From contig OY970359.1 of NCBI GenBank assembly GCA_963718665.1, forward strand, positions 544,001 through 608,000: DNA of 64,000 nt. The letters are read 5' to 3'. The notes beneath the pieces are model-generated. The model ran no database searches and had not been told where the DNA came from. It worked only from the letters and a program-made list of their open reading frames with translations. Origin of the DNA: an uncultured Phycisphaerales bacterium (GTDB lineage: Bacteria > Planctomycetota > Phycisphaerae > Sedimentisphaerales > Anaerobacaceae). Positions 5,295 through 12,421 of this stretch are shown here, piece after piece. Position 1 is the first letter of the stretch, and each line of letters begins with the position of its first letter. The translations under genes and the position numbers were made by a program.

Positions 5295-5951
5295 ATGACA
5301 ACTGCTATGGCGCGATATGCGATGAGCAGACGCATGCGTAATGCCGTTGCCATCATTATTACGCTGACGGCGGCGACATTATGTTTTCTCGACCGTAGTT
5401 ACATCAGCCGGTCATTAACCAAACCCCTGCAATCGAGCCATCAGCAGGATTCCGGAGACGTTTCAAAATATCACGGCAGGCAATTTGCCGTCGTAAAAGT
5501 CGTCGATGGCGATACCCTCGATATCGATATCCCCGATTTATCCGCCGACGGCGGACGCAAATACAGCCATACCAGAATCCGCCTTTGGGGAATCGATACG
5601 CCTGAAACCAAAGACCCAAGAACAGGGCCAATGTATTTCGGCAAAGAGGCATCGGACTTCGCAACCAAACTCGCCCTCGGCAAACAGGTAACTGTTTACT
5701 TGGAAAAAGAGAAGAACAGCAGGGACAAATATCATCAGCTTCTCGCCTATATCCAACTGCCCGACGGGACTTTCCTGAATGAGATTTTATTAAGCGAGGG
5801 TTACGCCTACGCGGATTTGCGATTCAAACACGGCTTATATAATAAATACAAGCAGTTGGAATCCGTCGCCCGAAGCCGCAAGATTGGCCTCTGGGCAAAT
5901 GTAACCCCCGAACAAATGCCTAAATGGCGGCAACAGAAAATCAAAAATTAA
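5295..5951 (+). CDS. Thermonuclease (SNase) family, N-terminal membrane anchor
   Basis: VVDGDT, IRLWGIDTPE, DKYHQLLAY, GLW motifs. Confidence 0.9.
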   Translation: MTTAMARYAMSRRMRNAVAIIITLTAATLCFLDRSYISRSLTKPLQSSHQQDSGDVSKYHGRQFAVVKVVDGDTLDIDIPDLSADGGRKYSHTRIRLWGIDTPETKDPRTGPMYFGKEASDFATKLALGKQVTVYLEKEKNSRDKYHQLLAYIQLPDGTFLNEILLSEGYAYADLRFKHGLYNKYKQLESVARSRKIGLWANVTPEQMPKWRQQKIKN

Positions 5952-6192
5952 AATGCAAAAGGCAAAATTGCGGTATCCCTATGGGATGATATTCTAACCA
6001 CAGGCAAGCTCCCCCGATAAAGACATTCGAGGGCAGGCAGGGCAGGCCGCTGAGGTAAATAATTAACACCGATTTATTTTAGACGCTGATTAACACGGAT
6101 GGAAACGGATTTACACGGTTTTTTCGCCGCGTCTTGAGTCGGAGCTAAGCTTATTAATTCAAACGACTAACCTTCCGATAAATATTCCCATC

Positions 6193-9100
6193 CTACGGTG
6201 GCCCCCACATCGTAGGATCGTTTATCCGTCGTATTTCTCTAAATACATCTATAGGATCTAGGGGTGTTATAGGGATTGAAAGCTGCAAGCGATCCAAATC
6301 ATTTTCCGATATACTATCTTGGGGACCGACCGAATCCGCCTTCACCAGTGGCTGATCACGAAACGTTAGCAACTCGTTGTATTGGTCAATATCCTTTTGA
6401 CTGGTATAAACAGCACTAGGGTATACGTATGATAAAGCTTGTAAGATGCTTTCTGTCATTCGTTCCATTCTGCTGTAGGCACCATTGGTGAGAGAGTCCC
6501 AGTAAATTCTGTCTATTTCTTCCTGTTCTCTTTCTCTTACCAACCAATCAGATATCCAGTCTCCGACAGTACATAAACCTAATGGGTCGATTTCATTAAC
6601 CGGATTATTCAGGCAATAAAGATACAAATTTGGTCCATCGGACATACCGGTGGGGTCCTGGGTAATGAAACGGCCAACTTCGGGGTCATAGTATCTTGCA
6701 CCGAAGTAAACCAATCCTGACGCGTCGAGCTCTTTGGTTAAGAATTGGTGCGAATTATCGGCCGAGCCGGTTTGAGCAACAATATTTCCAAAGGCATCGT
6801 AGCTATAACTTTGTGCAATTGCGCCGGAGGAGTCAGTCAAGTTTACCACGCTTCCCAAGCCATCGTAATGGTAATACTGCGAAGCGGACTGCTCACTAAT
6901 AATCCCGCCGATTCCGCCCGCCGCATAGGGATTGCGCAGGTAACTGGCGGTAGTTGTGCCGGCTGCATTGCGCTCCAAAATCACGTTAAGACCCTCGTAA
7001 AGATAATTTGTGGTTGATGAACCACTTTCAACTGAGATTCTTTTCCCTTCGCCGTCGTATCCGTAAGTTTCGCTGACGTCGGTAGAAGTAAATTGAACAA
7101 GATGATTTCTTGAGTCATAAGTTAAATTTGCGGTCTCGTCTCCCTGCTGCTTCTCAACCAGGTTGCCGTTTTTATCGTAAGTATAGATTATTTGTTCTTC
7201 GCCGGTAATCTGCTCATCAGTAAGCTGGTTTAAGGCGTTATACGAATAATTATGCGTGATTCCATCTTTAATCATCTGTGTGCGGTTACCTGCAGGGTCA
7301 TAAGCATAGCTAATCTGATAAGAATCAGCCGCAGAAGTTTTGCGCTCCTCAGTTAATTCTCCCTTGGCATCATAAGTATAATCAATTTCCCCATCCAGCG
7401 TTGTAACACTGGTTCGCAGACCTCTTATGTCATAGATATAGCTAAATTCAGCGAGTTTCGTAAAAGGTCTTTTTGCCTGCTGTTGAGTAAGTTTAGTCAG
7501 GCGGTTCATACTATCATAGGTATAAACTGCGTTTATCTTGTTTGGATAAGCCAATTTCACCAAATTGCCCAGCTTGTCATAAGTGTAGCTGGTGACTTTT
7601 TTCTGGGAGTCGGTGAGAGAAATTAAGCGGTTTAAGGCATCATATTTGTATTTAGTGATTTTTCCGTCGGGGTCAGTCAAGGTCAGGCGGTTGCCAGCTT
7701 TATCATAGGCATAGCTTACATTATCATTTGCTGCCGGGCCATCAACTTTAATCAGCCGTCCGAGTTTATCATAAGCATAACCGGTGGTCCCTTGCGCATC
7801 AGTCATTGAGATTCGCCTGCCCAGGGAGTCGTAAGCATAACTAACCTCTGAATCAGGATAAATAATTTCAATCAGGCGATTAAGGTTGTCGTATTGATAA
7901 GTGGTAGTTTGTCCTTTGGCATCAACTGAAGCAATACGGTTTCCTGCGGCATCATACTGGTATTGCACTTCATTACCCAAAGCGTCGGTTCGCGAGATTA
8001 AACGATTGAGGCTGTCGTATTCATAAGAAGTCCGGTTATTATTCTGGTCAGTTACAGAAATTAAATTCCCTTCTGTATCGTAAGCATAGTTAATCACATG
8101 GCCTGAAGCATCAGTTGTGGAAGTTACTCGATGGTCCTGGTCATAAGTATAGTAAGTGGTGTTGGCATTAGCATCAGTTACGGAAATTCGATTACCTGCT
8201 TCATCATAGGCATAGCTTACTGAAGACCCATCGGGATAGGTGACTTGGGTAAGCTTATTCAGCTCATCGTAATCAAAATTTGTAATATTATTTTTTGCGT
8301 CTTTGACTTGCGTCAAGTTTCCTACACCGTCGTAAGTAAAAAGTGTAATTCCTTTTGCAGCATCACTCTTGAGGGATAGGTTGCCTTGAGAATCATAGCC
8401 AAAAAGAGTTTTCTTGCCTAATTGGTTGGTTGCACTTATTGGCTGGCCGTAAATATTGTATTTATAGGAAACTGAACCGGCGAGAGCATCTACAGTTTTG
8501 GTAAGATTACCATACTTATCATAGGTATTAGTGGTAATATTGCCCTGCGCATCAGTAAAGGTTTGCAATAAGTTAAAGTTTGCCTCGTAATTAAATGAAG
8601 TAAGATTACCCTTGGGGTCGGTAACCCCGGTCAAATTGCCTTTCGCATCGTATTCCATGCTGGTTGTGCGGCCCAATTCATCGGTACGGGAGGTAAGATT
8701 TAAGTTACTATCCCATGTTGAGAGGATTTGGCCGCCTTGAGGATTGACTACTTTGGTGATTAGATAATCACTGTTATAGTAATGCACTGTCTGGTTGCCT
8801 CTGGAATCGGTAATTGTGGTCACGCTGTCAGCAGTATCAAAACTTAAGCTTGTGTAATTATTGTTGCCCTCGCCCGTAGAAGATGTGCAGCGGCCTGAGT
8901 TGTCAAAAGTAAAATATACCGAATCTCCCCTTGGATTGGTCTTCCTGGTGAGTTTGTGATTTGAGTCGTACTGATAAGTGGTTGAATTGCCCTTGGGGTC
9001 GATAACGCTGGCTAAGTTGCCGGAAGAATCGTATGTATAATCATAATTTCTTCCTACCGGGTCGGTTATCTGGGTTAGCTGGTTTGAATCGTTATAGCTT

Positions 9101-10173
9101 AAATTAATTACGCGTCCTGCGGTATCGGTAATTTGAGTGAGGTTATTCTTAGCGTTATAACTAAATGAAATAACGTTGCTATTGCGGTCTTTTATTTGCG
9201 TAAGCTTCCCGGAAAGATCAAAAATATATTGTTTACCATCTTTCTTGCGCCAGCTATAGTTAGTCGAGGCCTTGGTTAAGGTGGAATATTCACCTCGCTG
9301 GGCAGTATATGTGCCGTCTAAATTATCAGCAAATAAATAACCCTTTGCCTGCTCATCTTTTATTTTGACGAAATTAGCGTCGCCAAAACCATCATCCATT
9401 TCTAAATAAACATTATAACTATGCGTCCATCCAAAACCCAAAGGCTCTTCCGTTTCTTCCTGACTGTTATACGTGCGGACAAATTCAAATTTCAGGCCCC
9501 GCCCGGGTATAGTTAAGTCGGGGGTGATAACATACATATTGCCGGTTACGGAGTTTATAGGGTCGCCGACGGACGGATTTGGGGATTCCCCATTCGTGGC
9601 ATCAATAGGAGGATCTGGCGGCTCCGGCGAAGGTGTTGGAAAGTGTATCATCGTGATTGTAAATACACCAGCATTTTGCCCTATGAATGTTGCATACGAA
9701 TTAAGCTCCGTGTCTGTATCACTTGATGAGTAATTATCCTGAAAAGTACCTGATATTGTCTTATTTAAAACTGTGCCGACAAAATTACTAACTTCTGTGG
9801 CCGTTCCGCTCCCTTCCGAATCATTGTAATTGCTGGTATATGTGGTTGTAAAAGTTATCGAATTACCAGTTACCTTCCCTGTTAAAGTTGCACTCGTCGT
9901 TCCAGAACTATCGCTAGTATTAGAACCGCCGCTGAGAGTCCCATCGGGAGCTTGGTTTATCGTAAAATTATCATTAGGAAAATCAGGAAACGCAACATCA
10001 CGACTACTTGTATTCTGAGTTCCATCGGAAAGTGTCAATGTGACAGTTTCTGTCAGGTTTATGGTGGAAGGCGTAATAGTTGTATCCCAAACTCCCGATA
10101 CATCCGCATTCGTGGCAAAGGCAAAATTACTATTGCATAAGCAAAACAAAACTACTAATAAAATCCTTCTCAT
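6193..10173 (-). CDS. RHS/YD-repeat protein with signal peptide, DUF6531-like region, RHS core and ~120-aa C-terminal tip
   Basis: Many YxYD repeats; GDPINSVTGN; RYYDPEVGRFITQDP...NNPVNEIDPLGL core end. Confidence 0.93.
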   Translation of the reverse strand: MRRILLVVLFCLCNSNFAFATNADVSGVWDTTITPSTINLTETVTLTLSDGTQNTSSRDVAFPDFPNDNFTINQAPDGTLSGGSNTSDSSGTTSATLTGKVTGNSITFTTTYTSNYNDSEGSGTATEVSNFVGTVLNKTISGTFQDNYSSSDTDTELNSYATFIGQNAGVFTITMIHFPTPSPEPPDPPIDATNGESPNPSVGDPINSVTGNMYVITPDLTIPGRGLKFEFVRTYNSQEETEEPLGFGWTHSYNVYLEMDDGFGDANFVKIKDEQAKGYLFADNLDGTYTAQRGEYSTLTKASTNYSWRKKDGKQYIFDLSGKLTQIKDRNSNVISFSYNAKNNLTQITDTAGRVINLSYNDSNQLTQITDPVGRNYDYTYDSSGNLASVIDPKGNSTTYQYDSNHKLTRKTNPRGDSVYFTFDNSGRCTSSTGEGNNNYTSLSFDTADSVTTITDSRGNQTVHYYNSDYLITKVVNPQGGQILSTWDSNLNLTSRTDELGRTTSMEYDAKGNLTGVTDPKGNLTSFNYEANFNLLQTFTDAQGNITTNTYDKYGNLTKTVDALAGSVSYKYNIYGQPISATNQLGKKTLFGYDSQGNLSLKSDAAKGITLFTYDGVGNLTQVKDAKNNITNFDYDELNKLTQVTYPDGSSVSYAYDEAGNRISVTDANANTTYYTYDQDHRVTSTTDASGHVINYAYDTEGNLISVTDQNNNRTSYEYDSLNRLISRTDALGNEVQYQYDAAGNRIASVDAKGQTTTYQYDNLNRLIEIIYPDSEVSYAYDSLGRRISMTDAQGTTGYAYDKLGRLIKVDGPAANDNVSYAYDKAGNRLTLTDPDGKITKYKYDALNRLISLTDSQKKVTSYTYDKLGNLVKLAYPNKINAVYTYDSMNRLTKLTQQQAKRPFTKLAEFSYIYDIRGLRTSVTTLDGEIDYTYDAKGELTEERKTSAADSYQISYAYDPAGNRTQMIKDGITHNYSYNALNQLTDEQITGEEQIIYTYDKNGNLVEKQQGDETANLTYDSRNHLVQFTSTDVSETYGYDGEGKRISVESGSSTTNYLYEGLNVILERNAAGTTTASYLRNPYAAGGIGGIISEQSASQYYHYDGLGSVVNLTDSSGAIAQSYSYDAFGNIVAQTGSADNSHQFLTKELDASGLVYFGARYYDPEVGRFITQDPTGMSDGPNLYLYCLNNPVNEIDPLGLCTVGDWISDWLVREREQEEIDRIYWDSLTNGAYSRMERMTESILQALSYVYPSAVYTSQKDIDQYNELLTFRDQPLVKADSVGPQDSISENDLDRLQLSIPITPLDPIDVFREIRRINDPTMWGPP

Positions 10174-10846
10174 TTCACCACCTTGTTTTTGTATCGCTTC
10201 TTGTTAAACGACTGATTATGCAACCAATCTTTCTAATCGCATCATTGTAATATATCAAAATCTTCCTCGGATTACAATAATCCCGGGTTTCAAGACCTCA
10301 AAGGCAAGATTTATCAGCCGGAGGCGGGGAAATGTTAAGATGGGCAATTTAATCAAACGTTTGTTTGAGAAACTGGACGAACGCTGCCCCCCGCCGTTTT
10401 GATTCTCAAAACGAGACGCGGGGGTCTTCGCTGCGCTACGAAAAAAAAATCCGGTGATTTTCAAATATTTTTTTTATTCCTTGTCCTGCAAGGACTTACT
10501 GATTTTGGGCAAAAAAATCGTGTTTTGTAAGTCCTTAAAATTGCCTAAAATTCACCTTATATATAGAGGCACATAAGTGCACAAGAACACAGGTGCACAA
10601 GGAAAAAGGCAAGAGGCAGCGGAGACCCGCAAGGTAGCAAGCCCCGGGAGGGCAAGTTTCACGCCAAGATAGGCAAGGCACAACTGATATTAAAAATCAA
10701 AAAGTAAAAGGCAAAAAGACAACGCAAAATTCAAAAAGGTAGCGCAGAAGCGCACGCATTTCGGGGCAGCAGTCCCAAGAGAACATTCCGTTTTTTGATT
10801 TATGATTGCCGAAGCGCTTCGCTACGTGTCTGATTTAATAATAACG

Positions 10847-10872
10847 TGGATTCCCGCTTGCGCGGGAATGAC
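10847..10872 (+). repeat. REP-like palindrome (GGATTCCCGC-TTGC-GCGGGAATGAC)
   Basis: Perfect stem; related interrupted copy at ~30336-30391. Confidence 0.6.
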
Positions 10873-10979
10873 AAATTAAAACCCTGCCACTCGCCAAAGG
10901 CGGAGATGGCAGGGCTAACTATGGAAGCTGGGCCCCAGATCGTAGTCTGGGGTCTTCGCAAAGCTACGAGGAGAGGATT

Positions 10980-11588
10980 ATGACTACTATCCAAATCAAA
11001 GTTCCAAACTGGTTAGACCTTGCTTTCGTTTGGCCGGTTTTGCTTTATCGACAATGGAAATACGGCTATTCGTTTCGGAAGATTTTTATAGGCGAAGGGA
11101 GATTCGCGATTGTCGAGCCGACGGATTACTACCGGCTAAATAATTTTCACTGGTGCATAAGCGTAAGCAGGAGAAATATCTATGCCGTTCGGCTCGTGCT
11201 GACAGATAACTGGCAGTTGAAAAAGGTGCGAATGCACAGGGAGATAATGAACGCGCCTGACGGGCTTCTGGTGGACCATAAAAACGGCAAAACCCTTGAT
11301 AACAGAAGATCGAACCTGCGATTAGCTACACATTCTCAGAACATGTGCAACAAGCCAAAAACAAGCACAAAGAGCACGTCGCGGTTCAGAGGGGTTTATT
11401 TGGATAAACGCAAAGGAAGGTGGGTTGCCAAAATCCAAATCAACAGAAAATGTATATGGCTTGGGTATTTCGACAATGAAATCGACGCGGCAAAGGCATA
11501 CGATACGGCGGCGAAAATGTATCACGGGGAATTTGCCCACCTGAACTTCCCGGAACCACAGATTACACAGATTTCACGGATTATTTAA
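10980..11588 (+). CDS. HNH endonuclease with C-terminal AP2 DNA-binding domain
   Basis: MHREIM...VDHKNGKTLDNRRSNLR (HNH); SRFRGV...WVAKI...LGYFDNEIDAAKAYD (AP2); GAGGAG RBS. Confidence 0.92.
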   Translation: MTTIQIKVPNWLDLAFVWPVLLYRQWKYGYSFRKIFIGEGRFAIVEPTDYYRLNNFHWCISVSRRNIYAVRLVLTDNWQLKKVRMHREIMNAPDGLLVDHKNGKTLDNRRSNLRLATHSQNMCNKPKTSTKSTSRFRGVYLDKRKGRWVAKIQINRKCIWLGYFDNEIDAAKAYDTAAKMYHGEFAHLNFPEPQITQISRII

Positions 11589-11695
11589 CCACGGAAGCGG
11601 AAACTTTCAAGATAAAGAAAATAGGGTCAAAAGGCCGAAGAAACTGATATAACCGCGAATTTCTCAGCCGGAGCAGATACGGAAGGAATGAGATT

Positions 11696-12421
11696 ATGGA
11701 AAATCAAACTAAAAACGCAGCCATTGCGGAACAGACCGTGGACAGCAAGCAATGCCAGACGTTCAATCCGAAAGCGACGCTGCTTTTGGACGTGCCGCCA
11801 ACAGAAGCCGGGAAAACCACTGTTGAGCCGATGAAAAAAACGCCATCGAGCACGCCCGAAGAATCTTCTGAAAAATTATTGCAGGGACTTTCGCTGAATA
11901 CGGAGGCCTCGGCAGAAAAAACGCCTCTCGCACAAAGGAGATGGCAGCTTGTATCACTGCTGACGGGAATACTTTTTGTTACGGCTGCCGCGATAGTTGT
12001 GTGGCTGGCTCTGGAGGTAAGCGCAACGAGAACGCAGCAAGGCCGGCTGGAAGTCGAGAACCAGTCGCTGCGGGAGCAGTTGAATCTTGCCGGCTCGCAG
12101 ATAACAGGATTGAAAAATGAGATGGAGGCGCTGCTCAATCGCAACACAGCGCCGGTGACGGGAAACGCGAAATTAAATTCGCATGGCATTACGCCCATCG
12201 CTGCCGCGTCCTCTAAATCGGCTTCGGCTGACACAAGCCGAATAGACGCAATGCGGAAAGGAACATATTCCAAGGGGGCAACAAGAGAGGAGCTTATAGC
12301 GGCAATGGGGGAACCGGACCGCGTTTATAATTCTCGCGGATATGAGCAATTGGTTTACTTCGGCAAAAAACCCGGCCGTTTCTGGTTAACCGGCGGACAC
12401 GTGGCCCAGGTCGGCGGATAA
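11696..12421 (+). CDS. Hypothetical single-pass membrane protein with coiled coil and SmpA/BamE-like C-terminus
   Basis: TM segment LVSLLTGILFVTAAAIVVWLAL; GATREELIAAMGEPD motif. Confidence 0.7.
   Translation: MENQTKNAAIAEQTVDSKQCQTFNPKATLLLDVPPTEAGKTTVEPMKKTPSSTPEESSEKLLQGLSLNTEASAEKTPLAQRRWQLVSLLTGILFVTAAAIVVWLALEVSATRTQQGRLEVENQSLREQLNLAGSQITGLKNEMEALLNRNTAPVTGNAKLNSHGITPIAAASSKSASADTSRIDAMRKGTYSKGATREELIAAMGEPDRVYNSRGYEQLVYFGKKPGRFWLTGGHVAQVGG

Follow-up and report, generated by a model that had tools for sequence, protein, structure and literature searches.

Chromosomal HNH-AP2 nucleases of Sedimentisphaerales as possible homing parasites of a GTA-like system

Gene transfer agents (GTAs) are generally portrayed as packaging the DNA of their host with no preference for particular genes, and what maintains them is still an open question. 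In the OMEGA nucleases (IscB, with its HEARO RNA), the HNH gene is preceded by structured non-coding DNA. Homing nucleases of phage T4 are expressed from middle or late phage promoters, and RNA hairpins hold some of them in check, according to excerpts of PMC2988022. As far as these excerpts and those of PMC2248197 and PMC10448857 describe them, the T-even seg and mob genes and the HNN-AP2 genes of Xanthomonas and ICP1-like phages resemble the genes studied here, being intergenic HNH genes with AP2 that occur in multiple copies and are present or absent at common sites. Here, we describe an HNH-AP2 gene located in a 64,000-nucleotide stretch of DNA (the window) from a closed 2.6-Mb Sedimentisphaerales genome (G000), along with its paralogues and homologs. 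Searches of an open-access library yielded no description of this family.

The gene (positions 10980-11588, plus strand) encodes a protein of 202 amino acids in which Pfam identifies HNH_3 (E 2e-9, residues 93-122) and AP2 (E 2e-11, residues 134-183), and it is intact, as a sequence-only reading of the window had proposed. The catalytic HNH motif is preserved and the AP2 DNA-binding domain is present. The structure model (pLDDT 88.5) consists of an N-terminal strand (residues 1-10), an amphipathic helix (residues 10-28), a beta-sheet domain (residues 33-90), the HNH (residues 97-123) and the AP2 domain (residues 134-185). The extra N-terminal segment noted in that reading corresponds to the helix in the model. 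A fold search with the model matched phage HNH homing endonucleases and plant AP2 domains, and weakly I-HmuI. Neither RuvC nor any other IscB-type domain was found, as Pfam returned only HNH_3 and AP2, and the fold search only AP2 and homing HNH folds. A transmembrane anchor as the usual role of the N-terminus was rejected, with a median best 19-residue hydropathy of 1.13, 19% of the values above 1.6 and an amphipathic moment of 0.82. Structure prediction gave a homodimer score of 0.63 versus 0.00 for the best of three controls. Of the solved pairs, 20/30 attained this score, as did 1/23 single chains; the runs agreed in at least 96% of the contacts, with a pLDDT of at least 79. The predicted interface is formed by residues 1-10 and the variable beta-sheet, and the helix is mostly located outside it, so that the variable sheet, at first read as contacting DNA, may instead serve in dimerisation that is specific to each paralogue. 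The models suggest that the nuclease possibly acts as a homodimer.

The gene is not single-copy. The search for paralogues and homologs proposed in the sequence-only reading identified 27 loci in G000, of which 25 are intact and two are frameshifted, and relatives with empty sites, which agrees with its idea of a multicopy, mobile-looking unit with conserved upstream DNA. Each copy consists of a promoter, a variable UTR and an HNH-AP2 gene (intact in 25/27 cases in G000) beside a core gene. The paralogues in G000 have a median identity of 52% and are at most 66% identical, and the top within-genome identity in G017 is 78%. The family is present in 26 of 41 genomes from relatives, including 21 of 23 within the genus, with 0-31 matches each. 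In an even sample of the order, it was identified in 43/111 genomes and 23/56 genera, mostly in the families f1 and f5; it was not found in the portal-carrying families f2 (0/10) and f8 (0/5). We collected 122 copies, six of which were short or broken and left out of the protein counts. His100, Asn108, Asn112 and Asn121 are invariant in all 116 full-length copies, and dN/dS is 0.16 over 32 allele pairs that are at least 80% identical. The 88 sequences from the genus sort into 62 lineages, between which the exposed AP2 strand positions (in ERF residue numbering) and the N-terminal sheet are hypervariable, while the sheet is conserved within lineages. The wider relatives form 2895 clusters at E<=1e-20, phage-type ones included. 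In a second subfamily (L222 and L227 in G127, L218 and L223 in G114), a cysteine-rich N-terminus replaces the amphipathic helix; the portal promoter described below is still present at three loci of this subfamily (L218, L228 and L232). The traits of insertion sequences are lacking in that there are no near-identical copies within a genome and no transposase domain, and inspection by eye of the junctions at the window site showed neither terminal repeats nor a target duplication. Two DDE_Tnp_1 insertion sequences (L212 and L206; G000 positions 501155-502141 and 1714111-1715097) are located in or just upstream of HNH-AP2 leaders, and one of them parts the nuclease gene from its promoter.

At the window site, the nuclease always adjoins the right core flank, a gene for a 241-residue protein that belongs to no Pfam family (11696-12421, plus strand). 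The left core flank, an SNase-like gene (5295-5951, plus strand), directly abuts the right flank in empty alleles. The intervening cargo is variable: in the window it is an RHS-repeat protein (6193-10173, minus strand), and in other genomes it is a SIR2-TPR protein, a UvrD/GajB-like helicase, or nothing. The RHS-repeat protein has a signal-peptide-like start and a DUF6531 domain, and an immunity gene beside it is not evident. A sigma70-like promoter match (10249-10277, minus strand) faces the cargo gene, a consensus match only, with a chance expectation of 1.9. Comparison with empty sites, by which the bounds of the element were to be defined, revealed five relatives without the nuclease between the same two flanks (G007, G021, G013, G004 and G012) and seven genomes in which it is present. 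The allele in G012 (L038) contains only cargo. Imperfect direct copies of the window motif at 6052-6065, which occurs twice in G017, flank this cargo, and the motif is a possible cargo entry point.

The seven occupied alleles at the site represent four nuclease lineages; members of the same lineage are 92% identical to the window gene and the others 54-58%. A tree inferred from a quick search was star-like, and its well-supported branches are compatible with a single origin of these four lineages. Contigs from four DNA runs contained the locus and repeat-derived joints, with no clean empty allele among them. A metagenome scan for further alleles of the window lineage returned only relatives of 37-61% identity, and a genome scan returned two matches of 97%. 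Of 17 HNH-AP2 loci that were hand-picked rather than sampled at random, 10 have neighbours that match PADLOC models, and there is no PADLOC model for the nuclease itself. Different sites in G019 have a divergent cargo promoter region in common (L011:8880-8935 and L094), which indicates that the expression frames of the cargo are also exchanged. At L058 in G017, the upstream flank corresponds to one HNH-AP2 site of G000 and the downstream flank to another, so that a rearrangement breakpoint coincides with the copy.

The DNA upstream of the gene (10374-10979, 606 nucleotides) folds better than shuffled sequences (z -5.9, 0/20 shuffles). The features named in the sequence-only reading are all in place, namely a 10-bp inverted pair (10490-10499 and 10527-10536), the box TTATATATAGAGG (10557-10569) and hairpins that start at 10848, 10882 and 10930. 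The region had been described as free of ORFs, which holds for long ORFs, but two short antisense ORFs of 69 and 64 codons overlap it. A motif conserved upstream of the type A copies (10330-10359, plus strand), for which 6 of 11 matches in the genome are located upstream of and in sense with HNH-AP2 genes, is followed by a REP-like hairpin repeat (10387-10441, unstranded) with seven copies, three of them far from HNH-AP2 genes. Next comes a promoter block with A/T tracts (10443-10569, plus strand), a drifted variant, type A, of the capsid-operon promoter, which contains a site that we take to be IHF-like (10489-10499), an inverted second copy of this site (10527-10536) and TTATATATAGAGG. The putative 5' UTR of 410 nucleotides (10570-10979, plus strand) is a mosaic of modules common to other copies. 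It contains five small, family-specific hairpins that occur only on the sense strand (10619-10776, plus strand; at 10619-10630, 10641-10653, 10663-10674, 10742-10753 and 10763-10776). Both free inner pairs of these hairpins are kept in 31/31 cases across six variants through compensatory changes. Three REP-like hairpins (10846-10954, unstranded) follow. They have 13, 13 and 4 copies in the genome, and 12, 9 and 1 of these, respectively, are far from HNH-AP2 genes; the first two are genome-wide repeats.

The proposal that the gene belongs to an RNA-associated or RNA-guided element with the leader as its partner ncRNA is largely refuted, and we give it a very slight chance. The stable fold and the small covarying hairpins would fit such an element, but the UTRs vary from 45 to 451 nucleotides in length and the leaders are unrelated even between near-identical alleles: 17 of 24 allele pairs with proteins that are 84-97% identical share at most 30% of the shorter leader, and the promoter class differs in five of the 24. 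Pieces that are present elsewhere cover 564 of the 606 nucleotides, and the largest uncovered stretch, of approximately 35 nucleotides, leaves no large unique segment. No Rfam match reached the gathering threshold in the leader, where the two matches obtained were at chance level (E 0.8-0.9). The small hairpins are present in 19/28 type A and 11/17 sigma70-type leaders but in 0/35 type B leaders and 0/17 distant copies. The 10-bp stem is perfect in just 4 of 27 type A copies, which is what a pair of inverted sites for a protein would lead one to expect, and not a helix in RNA. The diversification instead sits in the protein-borne specificity of AP2. The part of the leader that is conserved can be exchanged for a sigma70 promoter (17/122 loci) and is also found in front of the capsid operon, which argues against a single ncRNA or guide. 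What remains of the structured leader RNA are the small sense-strand hairpins with their compensatory changes, and the comparison of HNH-AP2 leaders revealed no family-wide, conserved and covarying ncRNA. Rather than a single RNA, the leader of 600 nucleotides combines a promoter with a 5' UTR of small hairpins with fast turnover and with genome-wide REP-like repeats. The small hairpins are an optional element of the 5' UTR that we read as translational or transcriptional brakes. Two csrA homologs are present, and CsrA is a candidate controller of the hairpins with GGA loops.

At the 122 loci, the promoter is a block of approximately 130 bp ending in TAGAGG in 80 cases and a canonical sigma70-type promoter in 17, and 25 loci, some at contig ends, were left unclassed by the pattern used. 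The sigma70-type promoters take the position of the block and are followed by the same leader pieces, and a promoter is therefore the simplest reading of the block. In G000, 20 loci have the block and seven a promoter of the sigma70 type, which in one case is located beyond an insertion sequence. A single block in this genome has no nuclease behind it; it precedes the genes for portal, scaffold and major capsid proteins. A profile built from the portal promoters of 23 other genomes identified only the portal promoter and 20 HNH-AP2 promoters in G000 (E<=0.004), and a search with a single foreign portal promoter against 2137 upstream regions retrieved the portal and 13 HNH-AP2 loci and none besides. 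The sequence-only reading had noted that the gene has no phage context, which is true locally but not genome-wide, given the homology of the block to the promoter of the portal-scaffold-capsid operon. The nearest portal promoter was that of the host's own lineage in 63/63, 6/6 and 7/11 cases. In five further genera, 15 of 30 HNH-AP2 copies match a portal promoter with 78-95% identity over 148-231 bp, in all 15 cases best that of their own genome, and the other 15 have no such match. The comparisons show homology at the level of the family between the block and the capsid-operon promoter.

The window promoter belongs to type A; it keeps the IHF-like half and the 3' end and has lost the proximal box. 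The proximal GCGCAAG box is present in 1/28 type A versus 33/35 type B promoters. The window promoter is the second-weakest match to the profile (E 0.0012, upstream half only), and it is 54% identical to the portal promoter, compared with a shuffled maximum of 52%. The portal promoters of families in which the nuclease was not found have recognisable boxes, more so by eye than by profile score. Promoters of type B reach about 450 bp upstream (L122:14640-14900). The T tracts in this extension are phased, and it also contains a 23-bp palindrome and short repeats; it is a candidate operator, origin or pac-like region. A 26-nucleotide matrix detected no strong match in G000 beyond the 21 blocks. 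A single gene of the HU/IHF family was found, which makes a canonical IHF heterodimer doubtful.

The capsid and tail operon (L123:2149-11815; G000 positions 1660149-1669818) is GTA-like, as inferred from its gene content. Its portal gene is single-copy in 28/41 genomes and 15/16 genera and evolves under purifying selection. Within the genus, the operon is polymorphic despite its order-wide conservation, and unrelated DNA replaces it in G007, G019 and G020; two of these genomes nevertheless keep 22 (G019) and 17 (G020) HNH-AP2 copies. A portal match is absent from 10 of the 26 HNH-positive genomes. The genes for TerL, TerS and a ParB-like protein are located 0.7 Mb from the capsid operon in a separate packaging operon (L162:9253-18635; G000 positions 975253-984635, minus strand), where TerL was missed by PF03237 and found by homology. 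The first gene of this operon (G000:984195-984635), found in 31/41 genomes, encodes a sigma70-region-4 HTH protein of 147 residues that has a weak Q-like match, and it is followed by genes for an ABC ATPase, a gene of unknown function, the ParB-like protein, TerS, an RpiB-like protein and TerL. An SPL-like radical SAM protein and a methylase are inserted in it as cargo, and an HNH-AP2 copy is located 5 kb upstream. Inspection by eye of the region upstream of the packaging operon revealed a sigma70-like promoter and no evident block.

The similarity of the promoters could be maintained by gene conversion among repeats instead of selection. The genes could also be relic phage nucleases or homing nucleases of the ordinary kind, with a promoter kinship that is a by-product of an ancestral prophage origin and of concerted evolution and has no function in particle production. 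Such an origin would suit the drift of type A, the sigma70 swaps and the copies in genomes without the capsid operon, and HNH-AP2 genes are common multicopy phage genes (excerpts of PMC2248197). We consider it decidedly improbable, as type B promoters (33-35 of 35) and those of distant families (16-17 of 17) retain the two boxes and the distance between them, and the block precedes no other class of genes. It is also quite unlikely that the nucleases have been domesticated as GTA accessory enzymes, the host keeping many specificities for an even fragmentation of the producer chromosome or for defence beside restriction systems. The low dN/dS, the promoter held in common with the capsid operon and the PADLOC matches beside the hand-picked loci would all be expected under domestication; the span of copy numbers from 0 to 31 within one genus, the apparent absence of the nuclease from two portal-carrying families, the polymorphism of the sites, the replacement of alleles and the lack of a PADLOC model for the nuclease speak against it.

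The central core of the window gene (codons 59-165; 11154-11474, plus strand) is lineage-specific and was exchanged recently between species at this site. In comparison with G019, 2 of the 68 synonymous sites in the core differ, and the values for the gene ends are 0.37 and 0.67, with a background dS of 0.35 (51 genes). In two other pairs, the cores have 2/71 and 6/70 synonymous differences, and many pairs are near the background. Young cores between diverged gene ends show that the cores cross species borders and recombine in through the conserved ends. Near-identical pairs share a flank in 25/29 cases, even if inverted or shuffled, and one clear near-identical core is located at a different site. 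The exchange tracts are confined to the gene, and the flanks are diverged. Broad co-conversion tracts were sought in the flanking genes and not seen, as these flanks are mosaic. Variants that track the nuclease lineage and not the genome were seen at the junctions of all three sites examined in this respect. A patch of 7 bp in front of the downstream core gene (11622-11628, plus strand) does so in 3/3 and 2/2 carriers and is a candidate immune variant of the target. At the two other sites, an Asp-to-Ala change near the end of ftsY is present in 3/4 carriers and in none of 17 others, and the end of hisI is disrupted by a repeat in 3/3 carriers, yet also in two non-carriers. The insert at the hisI 3' end (L249, L253, L255 and L259) is REP-like, single or tandemly doubled, and accompanied by what looks like a short duplication. 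No lineage-tracking variant was localised at four further sites, with few genomes for each. The junction variants suggest immune targets, but may reflect mere co-transfer.

These exchanges also bear on a packaging drive, in which the nuclease, made in producer cells that are doomed, would cut their chromosome next to its own gene and thereby provide a free end for the terminase, so that the locus is over-packaged with no need for immunity. This would directly account for a late promoter and for exchange tracts that end at the gene borders, the predicted dimer could make double-strand breaks, and GTAs package by headful with species-specific biases (excerpts of PMC11841831). We regard it as unlikely, though, since the junction variants that track the lineages look like immunity, the copies persist without a capsid operon, and cores that are 97% identical are placed behind both sigma70-type and GTA-type promoters, so that self-cutting would have to be tolerated. 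Homing, with its advantage in the recipient, is favoured over biased packaging, with its advantage in the producer. It has a weakness of its own, in that a nuclease made in a producer with an immune allele has no obvious target, which leaves its delivery to the recipient unexplained.

The explanation that we prefer, with somewhat better than even confidence, is that these are chromosomal free-standing nucleases of the homing type that parasitise a GTA-like system of the host, into which they are wired and by which they are spread. It draws on the sequence evidence for a family under selection, with promoter homology, site polymorphism and exchange of cores. Homing nucleases would have moved from a phage setting into the chromosome, taking along or capturing the late promoter of the GTA. 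The block may be a late promoter that depends on an activator and on IHF or HU, in which case the copies would be expressed along with particle production. GTA particles would carry the nuclease locus to relatives, where the nuclease would cut a long site beside its own insertion point in alleles without its lineage, and repair from the incoming DNA would install the nuclease through homology in the flanks or the conserved gene ends. Defence genes in the cargo would hitch-hike with the locus, and the hairpins of the UTR may restrain copies whose promoter is no longer restricted to the GTA, such as the window copy.

If this is correct, nucleases that copy a GTA promoter and spread faithfully to their sites are selfish passengers of the GTA and speak indirectly for the activity of this undescribed GTA in nature. 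Such a system would also explain the defence hotspots in Sedimentisphaerales genomes and extend intronless homing from phages to the bacterial chromosome. The family appears to be a large set of nucleases of approximately 200 residues with diversified specificity. The chances are somewhat short of even for the full picture, in which dozens of gene drives in the chromosome live as parasites on a GTA of Planctomycetota, being site-specific nucleases that have captured its promoter, are produced together with the particles and force the inheritance of themselves and of neighbouring defence genes through GTA-mediated crosses, while their paralogue-specific dimer and DNA-reading surfaces make up a natural library of rare cutters.

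Compared with known systems, the family works like intronless homing, and the comparisons with OMEGA and insertion sequences fail. It resembles OMEGA in that the HNH gene is located behind structured non-coding DNA and differs from it in having no conserved leader RNA, no Rfam match, and AP2 in place of RuvC and an RNA scaffold. Unlike the free-standing homing endonucleases of phages, it resides in a bacterial chromosome in up to 31 mostly intact copies, with an extra N-terminal strand and helix and a predicted dimer. The candidate target variants are located within about 60 bp, compared with hundreds of bases away in phage homing systems, and the copies have a promoter of about 130 bp in common, whereas those of Xanthomonas phages are without conserved flanks in the excerpts covered. 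The type B promoter, with a distal box, an IHF-like site and a GC-rich palindrome in the spacer of the core promoter, resembles the GafY/GafZ/IHF regulon of the Caulobacter crescentus GTA as excerpted from PMC11150451. Like that GTA, again following the excerpts of PMC11150451, the present system has a sigma-like HTH regulator and several dispersed promoters, here recognised from sequence alone. It differs from the Caulobacter GTA, so far as the same excerpts go, in that it belongs to an unrelated phylum, its dispersed promoters drive polymorphic nucleases rather than accessory particle genes, and the putative TerS keeps the N-terminal region that is matched by phage TerS profiles. The run-off replication of the Bartonella GTA, in the excerpts of PMC11841831, is likewise tied to a locus and skews the choice of DNA that a GTA spreads; there it is a single replication origin that benefits the host, here it would be some 27 dispersed nuclease loci.
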